Below are positions 1-6,672 of a stretch of DNA of 64,000 nt, in pieces. Made by a program: the position numbers and the translations under genes. Positions within the stretch are counted from its first letter, which is position 1, and the number at the start of each line of letters is the position of its first letter. Source of the stretch: Candidatus Zhuqueibacterota bacterium (GTDB lineage: Bacteria; Zhuqueibacterota; Zhuqueibacteria; Thermofontimicrobiales; Thermofontimicrobiaceae); the NCBI GenBank assembly GCA_049322915.1, contig JBMOPW010000016.1:103971-167970 (forward strand), read 5' to 3'. The notes below the pieces were generated by a model that was given only the letters and a program-made list of their open reading frames with translations, had not been told where the DNA came from and made no database searches.

Positions 1-437
1 TGAATCTGACAGAGCAGTTCGCCATCTTCTTCGTTCGTTATGCTCGTCCCGGACGTCTGAGCAATTGAAATCTCAGGCAATTTTGCAATGTTCGACAGGA
101 AGAGCTCTTTGGAAAACTGCTCCACAGCGTGATGCCATTGAAGGAAAATGAGGCCGGGATCGAACAGGTCAATCTCCTGAACCAGCACATCAGGAATATC
201 CAGCTTTTGCAGGGCTGTCAATCGGTTGGCGCCGTCAAGAAGGATGTGTTTGGTTGTCCCGGCATGGGTGGCGACAACCGGGGGATTTTTCAATCTGTTC
301 TCTTTCCGAAGATATTCGACGAGTCGTGCGGATCGCTCGGTGTCCGGCTCTTCATGAAAAATGATGTCTGAAATGGGGAGAATTTTGAGCTTTGGCAATT
401 CGCCGATTTTGAGCAGCTTATCATTTTTTAAATCCAC
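1..437 (-). CDS. ParB/Srx-fold protein, SbnI/SerK-like free L-serine kinase (3' end beyond window)
   Basis: Not in ORF track. Hand translation from GTG at 437 (RBS AAGGAGG just upstream): MDLKNDKLLKIGELPKLKILPISDIIFHEEPDTERSARLVEYLRKENRLKNPPVVATHAGTTKHILLDGANRLTALQKLDIPDVLVQEIDLFDPGLIFLQWHHAV... open to base 1. The LK-P--I--HE, P--V, DGxxR, VQEI and W-H pattern matches SbnI as I recall it. Confidence 0.75.
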   Translation of the reverse strand, partial: MDLKNDKLLKIGELPKLKILPISDIIFHEEPDTERSARLVEYLRKENRLKNPPVVATHAGTTKHILLDGANRLTALQKLDIPDVLVQEIDLFDPGLIFLQWHHAVEQFSKELFLSNIAKLPEISIAQTSGTSITNEEDGELLCQI

Positions 438-564
438 GTAGCCTCCTTGATGTCTGATGAGTTTGTTAGACCATGCAGTTATTCCGTACATCTTTCTGGT
501 TCTGATTTCACGGTAATGTGCAGTTGAATTTCCACGCTTCGATGCGCCGGGTTTGGCATAGAAT

Positions 565-597
565 AAAAAACCCACTTTATGAGTCGATAAAGTGGGT
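565..597 (-). terminator. Intrinsic terminator of proximal Trp attenuator
   Basis: Minus strand ACCCACTTTAT-CGACTC-ATAAAGTGGGT followed by TTTTT; perfect 11-bp stem. Confidence 0.9.
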
Positions 598-623
598 CGG
601 ATTCGGCTTAAATATTCCTTGAG

Positions 624-734
624 CTACACATCGAATTTGAGCAAATCCGCCACACCAATGGGTACACGCCACCAGCACCAATTGGAAATTGTCGACATAA
701 AACCAAGTAACTTTGTGACGATAAATTTGCTCAT
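624..734 (-). CDS. trpL: Trp-rich leader peptide (TrpL-like) MSKFIVTKLLGFMSTISNWCWWRVPIGVADLLKFDV
   Basis: ATG at 734 with AGGA RBS; TGG codons at 680-678, 674-672 and 671-669 (WCWWR); followed by antiterminator/terminator alternatives. Confidence 0.8.
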   Translation of the reverse strand: MSKFIVTKLLGFMSTISNWCWWRVPIGVADLLKFDV

Positions 735-764
735 GCGTAAATGTCCTGATTTAAAGTTTTTGTC

Positions 765-792
765 AATATACACAAAAATAATTCATTGTCAA
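765..792 (-). promoter_or_regulatory. Sigma70-type promoter TTGACA-N16-TATATT upstream of proximal leader
   Basis: Motif read directly; about 30 nt upstream of the leader ATG. Confidence 0.6.
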
Positions 793-874
793 GATAAATT
801 ATAGTAAATTTCAAACCGGAGGTGAAATGAGAATATCGATGATGTCCGGTTTGGATTCAGTATTCCCGATGAAA

Positions 875-902
875 TAAAAAACCCACTTGTGATAAGTGGG
901 TT
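875..902 (-). terminator. Intrinsic terminator of distal Trp attenuator
   Basis: Minus strand AACCCACTT-ATCAC-AAGTGGGTT followed by TTTT; same stem core as 565-597. Confidence 0.85.
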
Positions 903-928
903 GGAATTGCAAAGTTACCGTCGATGGA

Positions 929-1024
929 TCAGCGACATATTTCCGCCCCACAGATAATAATACGCCAGCGCCACTGGGCGCTGATGATTGCGTTCGTACG
1001 ATGTAATAAAGTGGAGCGAGCCAT
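929..1024 (-). CDS. Second Trp leader peptide MARSTLLHRTNAIISAQWRWRIIICGAEICR
   Basis: ATG at 1024; TGG codons at 973-971 and 967-965 (WRWR); followed by a homologous antiterminator/terminator; weak RBS (GGGG). Confidence 0.65.
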   Translation of the reverse strand: MARSTLLHRTNAIISAQWRWRIIICGAEICR

Positions 1025-1691: not shown

Positions 1692-3443
1692 TTAAATATT
1701 GAGCAGCTTTTTGATCCTTTTTACTTCGGTCATGGCCAGCGCCTGTTCGGCCAATGCCTCGGCTTCCTGCGCGGTGATGGAGCGGATGTACCGCTTCAAT
1801 TGCGGAATGAAGTAGGAGCTCATGCTCAGATTGCGATAGCCGAGTCCGATCAGCAGTTTGGTGTATTTGATGTCCCCGGCCATTTCCCCGCATATGCTGA
1901 TTTCTTTCCCGGCTCGCTTCGCTGCGAAAACCAGGTTTTTCAGCAGAATTAAAATGGATGGATGCAGCGGCTCATAAATTTTACTGACCTGCGCGTTGCC
2001 CCGGTCCACGGCCAGAGTGTACTGGATCAGATCGTTGGTGCCGATGCTGACGAAATCCACCTCCCGGTAAATGGCATCGATGACCAGCGCCGCTGAAGGA
2101 ATTTCGATCATGGCGCCGATGGGCATATCGCACTGGTGCTGTTTCCCCTCTTCCTGCAGTTCCTTTTTCGATTGGTTCAATAGTATTTTGACCTGTTTGA
2201 TTTCCTCGATGCTGGCAATCATGGGGAGTAAAATTTTGGCGGAGCCATGGACGCCAGCCCGGAGAATGGCCCGGAGTTGCTGTTTGAAAATTTCCGGCTG
2301 CTGCAGCGAGAGCCTGATGGCGCGCAAACCTAAATAAGGATTATGTTCGCTGAAGCGATGATCGCTTTTGTAGAATTGAGTCAGCTTATCCCCGCCCAGA
2401 TCCATGGTTCGAATGGTCACCGGCAGGGGATTCATTTTTTCGACGACGGTGCGGTAATGTTCGTATTGCTCATCTTCCGATGGGTAATCGTGCCGATCGA
2501 TAAAATGCATTTCGGTGCGATACAGACCAATGCCCGAGGCGAGAAAGGTGCGCGCTAATTCGATGTCTTCTTCGGAGCGGATATTGGCCAAAAAATTGAT
2601 CGTGTGTCCGTCTTTGGTGACCGAAGGAAGTCCGACCGCTTTTTTCTCGCGCTGTTTCTTTTCCCGCTGCTCCTTTATCGAGGCTTTGTACGACTGTAAT
2701 TTTTTAACACTGGGATTGATCGTCACTTCGCCGGTATTGCCATTCAAAAAAATGGGCATGGAAAGTTCCACATTCGATACCAGATTCGGAATGCCGGTGA
2801 CAAGCGGAATGCCGAGAGAGCGCGCTAAAATGGCGGCATGTGAGGTTAATCCCCCTTTCTCCGAGACGATCCCCTTGATGTGATTGGAATTGATATTGGC
2901 AGTTTGGGACGGCGTGAGTTCCGTGGCCACGATGATGAGGTCCATTCCTTCGAGCAGGCACTGCTGGCTGGACCCGATGAGGTTATCCAGAATTCGATGC
3001 CCCACATCGCGAATGTCCTGAATTCGTTCTTTGAGATAGCTGTCCTGGGTGGAAGAAAAAGTCAGGATCGATTCCTGCAGCACATCTTCCACGGCAGCCT
3101 CGACGTTGATGAGCTCTTCGACCAGTCTTTTTTGAATCTGCGCCATGAAGACCGGGTCATTTAAAAACAGGAGATGCGCGTCGAAAATGGCGCCCTCTTT
3201 GTGCCCGATTCGCTCCGTGATGTTCGCCCGAATTTCTTTGAGTTGCACGCGCGAAACCTCGATTGCCTGAGACAACCGGCCCAATTCTTCAGCGACCTGG
3301 GTGAATCGAATTGTCCGCCGCGTCACTTTGGGCGCGCTCCCAAAAATGCACGCCCGACCCCATGCTATTCCCGGCGAAATTGGGATGCCGAAAAAGGTGG
3401 ATACTTTTTTTACCATATCGCTCGATTTCCGATTATTTGACAA
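1692..3443 (-). CDS. ptsI: PTS enzyme I (PEP-protein phosphotransferase)
   Basis: GGLTSHAAILAR phospho-His motif, GIGLYRTE, IRTMDLGGDK, SIGTNDLIQY, CGEMAG; no GAF domain; alternative start at 3416. Confidence 0.95.
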   Translation of the reverse strand: MSNNRKSSDMVKKVSTFFGIPISPGIAWGRACIFGSAPKVTRRTIRFTQVAEELGRLSQAIEVSRVQLKEIRANITERIGHKEGAIFDAHLLFLNDPVFMAQIQKRLVEELINVEAAVEDVLQESILTFSSTQDSYLKERIQDIRDVGHRILDNLIGSSQQCLLEGMDLIIVATELTPSQTANINSNHIKGIVSEKGGLTSHAAILARSLGIPLVTGIPNLVSNVELSMPIFLNGNTGEVTINPSVKKLQSYKASIKEQREKKQREKKAVGLPSVTKDGHTINFLANIRSEEDIELARTFLASGIGLYRTEMHFIDRHDYPSEDEQYEHYRTVVEKMNPLPVTIRTMDLGGDKLTQFYKSDHRFSEHNPYLGLRAIRLSLQQPEIFKQQLRAILRAGVHGSAKILLPMIASIEEIKQVKILLNQSKKELQEEGKQHQCDMPIGAMIEIPSAALVIDAIYREVDFVSIGTNDLIQYTLAVDRGNAQVSKIYEPLHPSILILLKNLVFAAKRAGKEISICGEMAGDIKYTKLLIGLGYRNLSMSSYFIPQLKRYIRSITAQEAEALAEQALAMTEVKRIKKLLNI

Positions 3444-6384
3444 GTGCTAACTTTCGAGTGCAGGAGAATGATTCGGTTTTCAGCCGATACAAATACACGC
3501 CGGAGGCGACGCTGTTGCCGGCGCTGTCATTTCCATCCCAGGTGAGAGCATGGTGTCCGGCGACCATGCGTCCTTGCGCCAGTGTGGCTATTTTTTGACC
3601 GCGCAGATTGAAAATGCTCAATTCCACTTCGACCGGCTGAGACAGTTGAAAATGGATCTGCGTGGTCGGATTGAATGGATTGGGGTAATTCTGACTCAAT
3701 TGAAAGACAGTCGGCGCTGCAACCGTCGCGGCCGATTTCACCTCTGTTGCGCCGGACGTCCAGTTCAATATTTTCGATAACAAGGTCTGCGCAGTCTCCG
3801 GGTAAGGCCCGGAAATGCCTTCGAATCCAAACGCTAAATAGACGATGCGGTAATTGGCTGCGTCGTCCATGTAATGGATGGCTGCCGGCGACATCTGCGG
3901 AATGTATTTCAAAAACGTCGCTGCGCCCTGAATCGGCTGAATGCCATCCAGGGAGGTCTGATTGCCGGCGCCCCCGATATTCGATTCCATATACACGAAA
4001 AGTTTATCGCCGATGGGATCGCCGGCCACCCCCAACATTTTATTCGATTTCACCGTGTCGGAGACGAATGTCGCATGAAGGTAATTTGTGAAAAACAGGG
4101 AATCTTCCGGCGTCCCGTCGCCCATTAAATCGTAGCCGATGTTTTGACCGGATAAAATCAACCGACCGCCGGCGTCGAGATACCGGCTGATCTGCTGTTG
4201 TTCTTCCGGGGTCAAACTCGTCGTGCGGTCATCCCCGGTGAACCAGATCACGGTGGTGTATTGTTGCAGCGTCTCAGCAGTCGGAATGCCCAGGGCGTGG
4301 ACATCCCAGGTATCGGTGTAAACTTTGGCCAACGAGATGGGTTGATGAAAAAACGTTTCATACGAGTCGGCATTGTCGTCATCCACGAGCAGGGTGTTTG
4401 GGGCGCCGATTTTCACGTCGAATTTTTCCTCAGTCGAGTAGCCGTCTTCACCCCGTAACTCAAGTTCGAACGTTGCCAGATGGCCAATGCTTGCTTCATT
4501 GACAGAAAACGAGAACGGAATTGACAACGCCGATTGCAAATGCCCGAAACTTATGTCAGCGTATTGAACCGTAGCGAATTCAGCCGGGATAGCAATGTCC
4601 GAATCCAGCGTGGTCAGATGGGCACTAAAATTCCGGATAGGCACGCCCTCGTTGCTGATCAAAACACACAGCCGAACCGTTTCTCCCGGTTCAGCCAGGC
4701 CATTGCCATTCTCCAGCGAATCGACCACTTCATGCTTGAAATATTTTAACATGGGCGTGTTAACGAGCGTAGTCTGTTTCAGAATCCAACTATCTTTGTC
4801 CAATTGCATCGCTTCAACGGAGTCCGGAAAGATGAATTCAAATGTGTGGCTGGCCGACTCCACCGTCCTGACACATGTGGTTTCAGTCGCCGCCGTTGTA
4901 AAATACAGGTCCAGGGGCATGCGGAATAACGATGCGTCCGTCTGAATCTGATCGACGAATACGCTGACCTGATATTCGCCGGTCTCGGTTTTTTCCTGGC
5001 TCCAGCCATGCCGATAATGGGGATAATTTGGCTCATAGACCCATTGATGAAAGAACCAGTCCAGCGACGCCCCGTGCACCTGCTCGAATGCAGCCTGTAA
5101 ATCTTCAGTGGTGGCCGAAGAATAATCGAAACGATTCCGGTATTCCTGCAGGCCTTTCCAGAAATTTTCGTCCCCCACGACGTGGCGAAGCATGTGCAAC
5201 ACCCACGCGCCCTTGTTGTACACGATGTAGCCGTACACAATATCCGGATCGCTGATGTCGTGGCGGTACATGATGCCTTTCAATCCCAGGGCATTATTCT
5301 CATTGATCATGTAGCTGAAATAGCGCTCCTGGCCCTGAACATGGCCGTAATACAGGGCTTCGGAAAATACAGCAAAACCTTCGCTGATCCACGTGTGATG
5401 AAAATCTTTGGGAGTGATGCAATCGCCCCACCACTGGTGCGCCAACTCGTGGAGAAAAACCGATTCATAGGATTGATCGCCCAGGACCATGTACGGCTTA
5501 ACGCAGGTCAATGTCTGGTATTCCATGCCGCCCCAGTAACCGACGTACTCGGCCACACTGTATTTTTCATTCGGATAGGGATAGTCGCCGTAGTAGGAAG
5601 AGAGAATTTCAATCATCGAATTGGTGTTGCCGAAATCGTTCAATGCGTTGTTATAATGCTCAGGCAGGACAAAGTGCATGATATCCAGCGTGTCGTTCTG
5701 AGCGTTGATGTATGTGTCTTCAATGATCTGATAGTTCGTCGCTGTAAACGCGACAAGGTAGGTGGCAATTGGATTTCGCACCTGCCAGTGGAATGTCATT
5801 GTACCATCTTTATTGTCGATCTGTTCGATGAGCGCGCCGTTGGACGCAGCGACCAGGTTGGCCGGAACTGTGATGGAGATGTCCAGGGACTGGGGTTTAT
5901 CATCCGGCCGGTCTTTGCACGGCCACCAACAGCGGGCATAAAAGGGACAGCTCTCACTGGAGATGACGACCGGGCTGCGGCTTCGGTCAAAGGTCATGGG
6001 ATTGAAATTCGTCCCGGAGGATGGGTGTCCGTTGTAGAAAACGGTTACGGAAATGACTTCGCTGCGGGCGTAGACTCTATCTAATTGGATGAACAGGGAA
6101 TTGTCCGTGTGAGTGAAATTCGAGCCATTGCCGGCAACAGCAGTCACAGTCATGTTGTTGTATAAATCGAGAGTGAGTTGCGCAAGATTATCCGCCAGGC
6201 TCATCGCCTGGACGGTGACCGCGCCGGTGATTGTTTCATCATCCGGGTTTACTGCGATGTTGAGCTCGTAATATAAAACGTCGAAGTCATCCTGGTTTGA
6301 GACCATGGCATTGGTCTGGGCAGAAGAAAAAGCCAACGCCAAAAGACAAAGAGAACAGACGATTCGAATATTTGAAAAATTCAT
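3433..6384 (-). CDS. Secreted M1-family aminopeptidase with C-terminal FlgD-Ig/T9SS-like domain
   Basis: Signal peptide, GGMEY, HELAHQWWG...E, C-terminal LSQNYPNPFNP...WDG...SGVYLYRL; start ATG 6384 after GGGAGG. Confidence 0.9.
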   Translation of the reverse strand: MNFSNIRIVCSLCLLALAFSSAQTNAMVSNQDDFDVLYYELNIAVNPDDETITGAVTVQAMSLADNLAQLTLDLYNNMTVTAVAGNGSNFTHTDNSLFIQLDRVYARSEVISVTVFYNGHPSSGTNFNPMTFDRSRSPVVISSESCPFYARCWWPCKDRPDDKPQSLDISITVPANLVAASNGALIEQIDNKDGTMTFHWQVRNPIATYLVAFTATNYQIIEDTYINAQNDTLDIMHFVLPEHYNNALNDFGNTNSMIEILSSYYGDYPYPNEKYSVAEYVGYWGGMEYQTLTCVKPYMVLGDQSYESVFLHELAHQWWGDCITPKDFHHTWISEGFAVFSEALYYGHVQGQERYFSYMINENNALGLKGIMYRHDISDPDIVYGYIVYNKGAWVLHMLRHVVGDENFWKGLQEYRNRFDYSSATTEDLQAAFEQVHGASLDWFFHQWVYEPNYPHYRHGWSQEKTETGEYQVSVFVDQIQTDASLFRMPLDLYFTTAATETTCVRTVESASHTFEFIFPDSVEAMQLDKDSWILKQTTLVNTPMLKYFKHEVVDSLENGNGLAEPGETVRLCVLISNEGVPIRNFSAHLTTLDSDIAIPAEFATVQYADISFGHLQSALSIPFSFSVNEASIGHLATFELELRGEDGYSTEEKFDVKIGAPNTLLVDDDNADSYETFFHQPISLAKVYTDTWDVHALGIPTAETLQQYTTVIWFTGDDRTTSLTPEEQQQISRYLDAGGRLILSGQNIGYDLMGDGTPEDSLFFTNYLHATFVSDTVKSNKMLGVAGDPIGDKLFVYMESNIGGAGNQTSLDGIQPIQGAATFLKYIPQMSPAAIHYMDDAANYRIVYLAFGFEGISGPYPETAQTLLSKILNWTSGATEVKSAATVAAPTVFQLSQNYPNPFNPTTQIHFQLSQPVEVELSIFNLRGQKIATLAQGRMVAGHHALTWDGNDSAGNSVASGVYLYRLKTESFSCTRKLALVK

Positions 6385-6424
6385 CTCTGATCCTCCCTGG
6401 AAATAAGCAATTAAAATTTTTGAT

Positions 6425-6453
6425 AATATAAAGAAAATATTTAAAGATGTCAA
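6425..6453 (-). promoter_or_regulatory. Promoter TTGACA-N17-TATATT
   Basis: Motif upstream of the M1 peptidase start. Confidence 0.65.
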
Positions 6454-6672
6454 GGGAAAGAATTTTTCAGGGACCGGGTATGGCATTGAGAACAATCAAT
6501 GGGTTATCTCCGGAACTAAACATGAGTCGTGAGGGTTTAAATTTCACGTTGTTCATCAATCCGCCATGAATGGAGGATGAGTCAGAGGTCAGATTCGCTC
6601 CGCTTCGAAGAGCGGAGCTTTCGTTGCATGATACGCATTACCGGGCGTCGGCCCGTACCATCAGGAGTAAGT

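Follow-up and report, generated by a model that had tools for sequence, protein, structure and literature searches.

The stretch of DNA analysed here (the window, 64,000 nucleotides) covers positions 103,971 to 167,970 of contig JBMOPW010000016.1 of a Candidatus Zhuqueibacterota bacterium (G000:C16:103971-167970). Its left edge cuts a minus-strand gene for a homologue of the free L-serine kinases SbnI and SerK. This gene is preceded by two leader units with Trp codons and is followed, just beyond the edge, by a gene for a TrpB2-type tryptophan synthase. On the basis of sequence comparisons and structure models we consider it likely that the two genes form an operon under tryptophan attenuation and serve an indole-salvage route that passes through O-phosphoserine. 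The operon would probably convert serine and scavenged indole into tryptophan by way of phosphoserine. Feature positions are given in the numbering of the window unless prefixed with C16.

Kinase gene and operon structure

The original prediction placed an unannotated gene on the minus strand from position 437 across the window edge, with the motifs HE, DGANR, VQEI and W-H. The translated protein contains them all, with HE located at residues 28-29, LDGANR at 67-72, VQEI at 86-89 and WHH at 101-103. The part inside the window (1..437, minus strand) comprises the first 145 codons of the predicted kinase open reading frame (ORF), which has a GTG start codon at 437-435. An AAGGAGG ribosome-binding site, read from the sequence, is located 4 nt 5' of the GTG (442..448, minus strand). 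The complete gene has 284 codons, extends 417 nt past the left edge of the window and ends at G000:C16:103553. The trpB2 gene proposed to lie downstream was found just outside the window. It encodes 454 amino acids (C16:103507-102143, minus strand), has the same orientation as the kinase gene, is separated from it by a spacer of 45 nt and possesses its own ribosome-binding site. A G+C-rich hairpin followed by a T-run, forming a terminator, was found 3' of TrpB2. The succession of kinase gene, 45-nt gap, TrpB2 gene and terminator indicates a two-gene operon, of which only the 145 kinase codons and the control region lie in the window.

The kinase homologue belongs to the SbnI/SerK group

No Pfam family matched the 284-residue protein at E-values up to 0.1, and neither a helix-turn-helix (HTH) nor a ParB domain was detected. 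Two NCBIfam models gave matches over most of their length: the SbnI model NF033589 (E 5.6e-18, 65.2 bits, model positions 7-252 of 254) and the SerK model NF053625 (E 1.1e-9, 37.8 bits, model positions 21-243 of 244). The equivalog cut-offs of these models are 350 and 380 bits, respectively. Because the scores are far under both, the protein is an ortholog of neither SbnI nor SerK and represents a separate subfamily. A sequence search of the PDB gave no matches other than SbnI chains and 1vk1, the SerK homologue from Pyrococcus. A profile built from 16 diverse homologues matched SbnI with an E-value of ~1e-20 and SerK/1vk1 with E-values of 1e-5 to 3e-8, with 5x0b now included.

Comparison of folds gave the same grouping. 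The AlphaFold model of the protein has a mean pLDDT (predicted local distance difference test) score of 84, and the top Foldseek match was SbnI (5ujd, E 2.8e-16, 273 aligned columns on a target of 254 residues, target template-modelling score 0.79), aligned over its full length. SerK was also matched over the full length (E ~1e-15; 5x0b, 5e-15). Thus the two-domain architecture, an N-terminal ParB/Srx-like domain plus a C-terminal domain, has its full-length counterparts in SbnI and SerK. ParB, Noc and sulfiredoxin aligned with the first ~80-96 residues only, at E-values of ~1e-3 (4e-4 or weaker). Since nothing beyond this N-terminal segment aligned and no ParB Pfam domain was found, assignment of the gene to the ParB CTPases or partition proteins, or to the sulfiredoxins, was rejected.

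The residues expected of a serine kinase are in place. E29 of the HE motif is aligned to E30 of SerK and E20 of SbnI, which we take to be the catalytic base, and it is invariant in the 16 homologues. PDB entries exist, according to their titles, for the E30A and E30Q mutants of SerK. The segment D68-G-A-N-R72 is aligned to D58-G-V-H-R of SbnI and to D-G-H-H-R of SerK, and D68, G69, N71 and R72 are invariant in the same set. The Asp of this DGxxR sequence belongs to a nucleotide/Mg motif, and the role of SbnI D58 is reportedly supported by mutational evidence. A C-terminal PSG-TR motif is common to all three proteins in the alignment and is likewise invariant in the family. These data support the conclusion, drawn from sequence and model, that the protein represents a distinct, unannotated subfamily of the SbnI/SerK free L-serine kinases, with that activity as the predicted one. 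The placement in this group that the original prediction had made from the 5' part of the gene therefore stands, over the full length by hidden Markov models and by fold, and with the catalytic Glu and the DGxxR Asp retained. Homologues with E-values up to 1e-5 numbered 344 and came from KSB1, Calditrichota, Latescibacteria, Gemmatimonadota and other groups; among the 120 listed, all were unnamed or called hypothetical protein.

The second gene is TrpB2

The product of the second gene exceeded the cut-offs of two NCBIfam models, NF009057 (770.3 bits, cut-off 366) and TIGR01415 (676.5 bits, cut-off 518.85), and remained below that of the TrpB1 model TIGR00263 (155 bits, cut-off 392). Its nearest solved structures are the TrpB2-type chains 6hul, 4qys and 6hte, with E-values of 1e-139 to 1e-123. 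By these comparisons the gene is a trpB2, whose product would be expected to use O-phosphoserine. By its title, the 2014 work of Busch et al. reportedly concerns the O-phosphoserine preference of TrpB2 enzymes. Prediction of a complex between TrpB2 and the kinase gave a score of 0.00, which weighs neither way.

Leader region

Between the distal end of the control region and the kinase gene two tandem leader units were recognized, both on the minus strand; two such units are also present in the closest relative, L002. The proximal unit starts with a sigma-70-like promoter (765..792; TTGACA, 16 nt, TATATT) that matches 11 of the 12 hexamer positions and is conserved in L002. It is followed by a leader ORF of 36 codons (624..734), whose product, MSKF...NWCWWRV..., has Trp codons at 680-678, 674-672 and 671-669. 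In the fold prediction these Trp codons lie inside a hairpin (685-655). The predicted 5' half of an antiterminator (642..657) is located inside the leader ORF, 12 nt beyond the third Trp codon and with 18-34 nt remaining to the end of the stop codon, and it is identical in L002. The predicted 3' half (587..604) shares part of its sequence with the proximal terminator's 5' arm. This terminator (561..598) consists of a 12-bp stem with a 6-nt loop (598-569; hairpin -14.9 kcal/mol) and a T-run, and begins 25 nt after the stop codon of the leader ORF. The segment 657-642 is complementary to 604-592. For the duplex between 657-642 and the 604-587 region the predicted energy is -16.3 kcal/mol, which 1.5% of 200 shuffles attained. 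When the full leader was folded, the minimum-energy structure contained the Trp-codon hairpin, a second helix and the terminator; when the 3' arm of the terminator was omitted, the second helix extended into the terminator 5' arm.

The distal unit comprises a leader ORF of 31 codons from its ATG (929..1024; ...AQWRWR...) with two Trp codons, at 973-971 and 967-965, and a terminator with a 9-bp stem and a T-run (873..902; stem 902-880), which is conserved in L002. The counterpart of this leader peptide in L002 carries WWWW. The distal unit resembles the proximal one in a weakened form. Comparison with L002 showed that the conserved parts of both regions are the promoter, Trp codon, antiterminator and terminator blocks. 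The claim of two Trp-codon attenuators ahead of the kinase was thus borne out for the proximal unit, with its W-C-W-W run and terminator; the distal unit also has a terminator and is weaker, with only two Trp codons.

To judge the frequency of such arrangements, a leader detector was defined as at least three TGG codons among six, a stop codon within 30 codons, and a hairpin with a T-run. Applied to both strands of the organism's own genome (12.5 Mb), it reported 39 places, or ~3 per Mb. Among these, only the unit on C16 was judged to have a clean stem and T-run. As the only clean place in the genome, the proximal unit is therefore far from what chance would give.

Conservation of the gene pair and of the leader

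The surroundings of 59 kinase-homologue loci from other genomes, belonging to several phyla and restricted to one genome per species, were inspected. TrpB2 was found directly downstream on the same strand in 53 of the 59, partial genes at contig ends included. In four (L006, L015, L032, L043) the kinase gene stands at the end of a contig with no room downstream. Only in two, L055 (Zixibacteria) and L060 (Anaerolineales, a 31%-identical homologue), was TrpB2 not downstream despite sufficient room.

Among the 55 loci with 250 nt or more of sequence upstream, 37 showed a leader of the kind defined above (three or more Trp codons among six, a stop within 30 codons) together with a strong terminator, and in relatives the leader contains up to five consecutive Trp codons. 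The TrpB2 pairing and the Trp-codon leader that the original prediction proposed to look for near homologues thus recur across phyla. Complementarity between the segment after the Trp codons and the 5' arm of the terminator exceeded that of 95% of shuffles, which kept the mononucleotide but not the dinucleotide composition, in 34 of 39 leader units. With the ribosome modelled on the Trp codons, at least 60% of the terminator arm was paired in 31 of the 39 units, as against 4 of 39 when the ribosome was placed at the stop codon. Antiterminator and terminator covary between phyla, with AGTGGG/CCCACT in one group and GCAGCGGG/CCCGCTGC in another. Together, sequence conservation and fold modelling support the view that the leader is a transcription attenuator with a 1:2 / 2:3 / 3:4 pairing scheme, which would respond to tryptophan.

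A sample of 151 genomes from the organism's own phylum was also searched (the counts take in the unpublished genomes G144 and G088). A high-scoring kinase was detected in 25 of the 151, and TrpB2 was present in 24 of these 25. Wherever both coordinates were listed, kinase and TrpB2 were adjacent on one contig.

Several individual loci differ in their details. At L016 (3480-4830) Trp, Phe and Tyr codons abound in the leader (…HHWFWYWYYH…), and a type II chorismate mutase gene (Pfam CM_2, E 1e-25) lies after the terminator, ahead of kinase and TrpB2; this attenuator looks as if it responds to a wider range of aromatic amino acids. Neither a Trp-run leader nor a known Rfam element precedes the kinase-TrpB2 loci L049-L058 and L041 of Zixibacteria and Ignavibacteria. 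In L004, G095 and G136 the spacer between kinase and TrpB2 measures 430-560 nt vs the usual ~25-150 nt, which may reflect an inserted element. The Zixibacteria homologue of L055 (1699-2571, 44% identical) has genes for a glyoxalase-family protein and an isochorismatase downstream in place of TrpB2. There is also a second, distant group of SbnI-like proteins (L060:4001-4843, G064, G121, G144, G097; ~242 bits on the family profile, ~31% identical), which are not adjacent to TrpB2; in L060 the gene is flanked by DegV genes and an ABC exporter.

Tryptophan pathway content and proposed mechanism

In the organism's genome (96.3% complete) no match was obtained to trpA, indole-3-glycerol-phosphate synthase (IGPS, trpC) or trpE, although all 14 control genomes were matched in each search. 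For trpD only a 30-bit match was found, and for TrpB1 none over the cut-off, again with matches in 14 of 14 controls. TrpB2 is the sole enzyme of the pathway found in this genome. Because the rest of the pathway was not found, indole salvage is a more likely function of the module than de novo synthesis. The original prediction had cast the kinase as a supplier of O-phosphoserine for tryptophan synthesis. The TrpB2 partner that this required is present; a general biosynthetic route is not indicated, since trpA, trpC, trpD, trpE and TrpB1 were not found. In the phylum sample trpA was over the cut-off in 5 of 25 genomes with the kinase vs 87 of 126 others, a comparison that is descriptive only, the genomes being related.

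The proposed mechanism is as follows. When charged tRNA-Trp is scarce, the ribosome would stall at the Trp codons of the leader. The segment 3' of these codons would then be available for pairing with the terminator's 5' arm, and transcription would read through into the operon. When tryptophan is plentiful, the ribosome would translate past this segment, the terminator would form and transcription would stop. The kinase made from the operon would phosphorylate free L-serine to O-phospho-L-serine, which TrpB2 would condense with indole to give L-tryptophan. With no detectable trpE, trpD, trpC, trpA or TrpB1, the cell has to obtain its indole from outside, and the module would supply its own activated serine.

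Relation to known systems

The closest parallel is provided by SbnI and SbnA of Staphylococcus aureus and S. pseudintermedius, which serve the synthesis of staphyloferrin B (SbnI: PDB 5ujd, 5uje, 6nr6; NF033589). SbnI has the same two-domain fold and the HE and DGxxR motifs, and the operon logic is the same, a free-serine kinase standing beside a pyridoxal-phosphate-dependent beta-replacement enzyme that consumes O-phosphoserine. SbnA uses O-phosphoserine as its substrate. The two systems differ in that SbnI is only ~21% identical to the kinase described here, and in that its partner is SbnA, its control is by iron and heme and its product is a siderophore precursor, whereas here the partner is TrpB2, the control a Trp attenuator and the predicted product tryptophan.

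SerK (Thermococcus kodakarensis TK0378, PDB 5x0b-5x0k; P. furiosus PF0380, PDB 1vk1; NF053625) shares the fold and the catalytic Glu, its E30 corresponding to E29 here. It differs in being archaeal, ADP-dependent and devoted to cysteine synthesis and serine catabolism, and it is ~16% identical to the present protein. It converts free L-serine to O-phosphoserine (PMC5120207). The text available for that paper states that there are no clear-cut SerK homologues in bacteria, and the word tryptophan does not occur in it.

Stand-alone TrpB2 enzymes of T. maritima, S. solfataricus and T. kodakarensis, associated with indole salvage, belong to the same family as the TrpB2 of the operon. By its title, the 2014 work of Hiyama et al. 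is said to deal with indole salvage by TrpB2. In contrast to those cases, the gene described here is the only one of the trp pathway that was found and is co-transcribed with the predicted supplier of its substrate. Salvage of indole by TrpB2 is also treated in the part of PMC11085991 that was available, and the available part of Merkl 2007 (PMC1854888) reports that the trpB2 neighbourhood is not conserved outside trp operons.

Like the trp operon attenuators (E. coli trpL type; RF00513), the leader combines a short ORF in which Trp codons cluster with a hairpin over these codons, an antiterminator and an intrinsic terminator, in the classic 1:2 / 2:3 / 3:4 order of pairing. Unlike them, it is unrelated in sequence and scores below the Rfam gathering threshold (RF00513, 19.0 and 17.3 bits vs 41), it occurs as two tandem units, and it controls a salvage pair rather than a biosynthetic operon.

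In the literature searched, from which subscription journals were largely absent, no link between TrpB2 and a serine kinase was found, nor any work joining TrpB2 with ParB, SerK, SbnI or sulfiredoxin; such a link may therefore be in print. The available parts of a GapMind paper of 2026 and of a survey of the ParB-CTPase fold mention SbnI and SerK and make no connection with tryptophan.

Weighing of the evidence

Several observations count against the reading of the gene pair as a salvage operon fed by its own kinase. Neither equivalog cut-off was reached by the kinase homologue, and on sequence grounds its substrate could differ from that of SbnI and SerK. TrpB2 is much commoner than the kinase in the phylum sample (100 vs 25 of 151 genomes), so that the kinase is not generally needed for TrpB2. 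With regard to the leader, the full-leader fold contains the terminator together with the greater part of the upstream helix, and it is only the extension of this helix that competes; the mononucleotide shuffles mentioned above are a further weakness. Finally, 18 of the 55 loci, mostly in Zixibacteria and Ignavibacteria, have neither a leader with a Trp run nor an Rfam element; a scan of 20 loci lacking the Trp-run leader found nothing at the Rfam gathering threshold. A search of sequencing runs listed no RNA data set that contains the locus of the organism studied here.

The evidence on the source of phosphoserine is also divided. Among the 100 phylum genomes with TrpB2, a strong match to SerC_1, the form of SerC to which the search and its counts refer, was present in none of the 24 with the kinase vs 55 of the 76 without it, a contrast that rests on about four related families. 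In other phyla SerC_1 was over the cut-off in none of 43 kinase genomes, which says little because the base rate of SerC_1 is low in Gemmatimonadota (13 of 121, the unpublished G210 counted), where the kinase occurs in only 2 of the 121. The absence of SerC_1 was for this reason rejected as a cross-phylum test of a missing phosphoserine pathway. In the organism's own genome the SerA-, SerB- and SerC-like matches were sub-threshold only; it does contain SerA-like dehydrogenases scoring 245 and 178 bits, as well as a class-V aminotransferase whose specificity is ambiguous. Replacement of a missing phosphoserine pathway by the kinase is compatible with these data. The chances appear evenly balanced that kinase and TrpB2 constitute a self-contained route, induced by Trp starvation and the sole one to tryptophan without trpA-E, in which the kinase has been kept for lack of other adequate O-phosphoserine.

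A different function of the SbnI-like protein must be considered. That it is mainly a ParB/SbnI-type regulator or DNA-binding protein acting on TrpB2 or other genes, and not a metabolic kinase, is suggested by the ParB/Srx fold of its N-terminal domain and by the names given to SbnI in PDB 6nr6 and NF033589 (bifunctional transcriptional regulator/O-phospho-L-serine synthase), which likewise speak against a purely metabolic role. We regard it as very unlikely: the catalytic Glu and the Asp of DGxxR are invariant across the 16 homologues, no HTH or ParB domain was recognized in the protein with Pfam, the conserved attenuator already explains the regulation, and the pairing with TrpB2 in 53 of the 55 loci with room fits a pathway partner better. 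A less remote alternative, though still an unlikely one, is that the kinase acts on a different small molecule, or that the pair makes another product, such as a beta-substituted amino acid formed from O-phosphoserine with a different nucleophile. TrpB-family enzymes take other nucleophiles. Nucleotide and substrate use varies within the fold, a SerK-like protein having been reported, in the available part of a preprint, to bind CTP and not ATP (bioRxiv 10.1101/2025.10.10.680097), and the distance of the present protein from the cut-offs of both characterised kinases would leave room for such a shift. Tryptophan as the product is favoured by the leaders, which at 37 loci from several phyla are specifically rich in Trp codons, and by the second gene, which is over curated TrpB2 cut-offs and close to solved TrpB2 chains; the residues shared with SbnI and SerK, the PSG-TR motif among them, also count against this alternative.

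The attenuator itself might be illusory, the short Trp-rich ORFs being small functional peptides or chance ORFs and the hairpins merely ending upstream transcripts. The distal unit would suit this explanation best, with its two Trp codons, no clear promoter of its own and a position 30 nt past a repeated palindromic element, and the low Trp_leader scores in Rfam agree with it. It is nevertheless extremely improbable, given that conservation across phyla extends to the Trp run, its distance to the stop codon, the terminator and the complementary segment within the ORF, but not to the remainder of the peptide, and that a near-consensus promoter precedes the proximal leader. A role of the Trp-rich peptides as precursors of ribosomally synthesized and post-translationally modified peptides was dropped, as Pfam and fold searches gave no support for it. 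Salvage of indole by a Trp-attenuated kinase-TrpB2 pair is the reading we retain.

Neighbouring features

The neighbours of the leader region, all on the minus strand and judged by eye from their translations only, look like a thioredoxin (1159-1488), a phosphoenolpyruvate-utilising enzyme I-like protein (1692-3443) and a 1020-residue M1-type peptidase that carries a type IX secretion sorting domain at its C-terminus (3433-6495). The palindromic element, ~110 nt long (1054-1164, fold -44.5 kcal/mol), abuts the thioredoxin stop codon and is separated by 30 nt from the distal leader ORF that follows it. The genome contains at least ten further near-full-length copies at other places, with 83-95% identity, and it looks like a miniature inverted-repeat transposable element.

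Implications

For stand-alone TrpB2 enzymes the origin of O-phosphoserine and the reason for the preference have so far been unclear, and the operon offers a concrete answer. If kinase and TrpB2 do constitute the self-contained route described above, O-phosphoserine made by the kinase would be the physiological substrate of stand-alone TrpB2, and free-serine kinases would acquire a third role, after cysteine and siderophore synthesis. The same link may then extend to any organism that carries both SerK-like genes and TrpB2, Thermococcus among them. The homologues, which are now unnamed or hypothetical, would gain an annotation. The pair also suggests that widespread uncultured Trp auxotrophs, among KSB1, Gemmatimonadota, Zixibacteria, Ignavibacteria and others, live on indole that their neighbours release.

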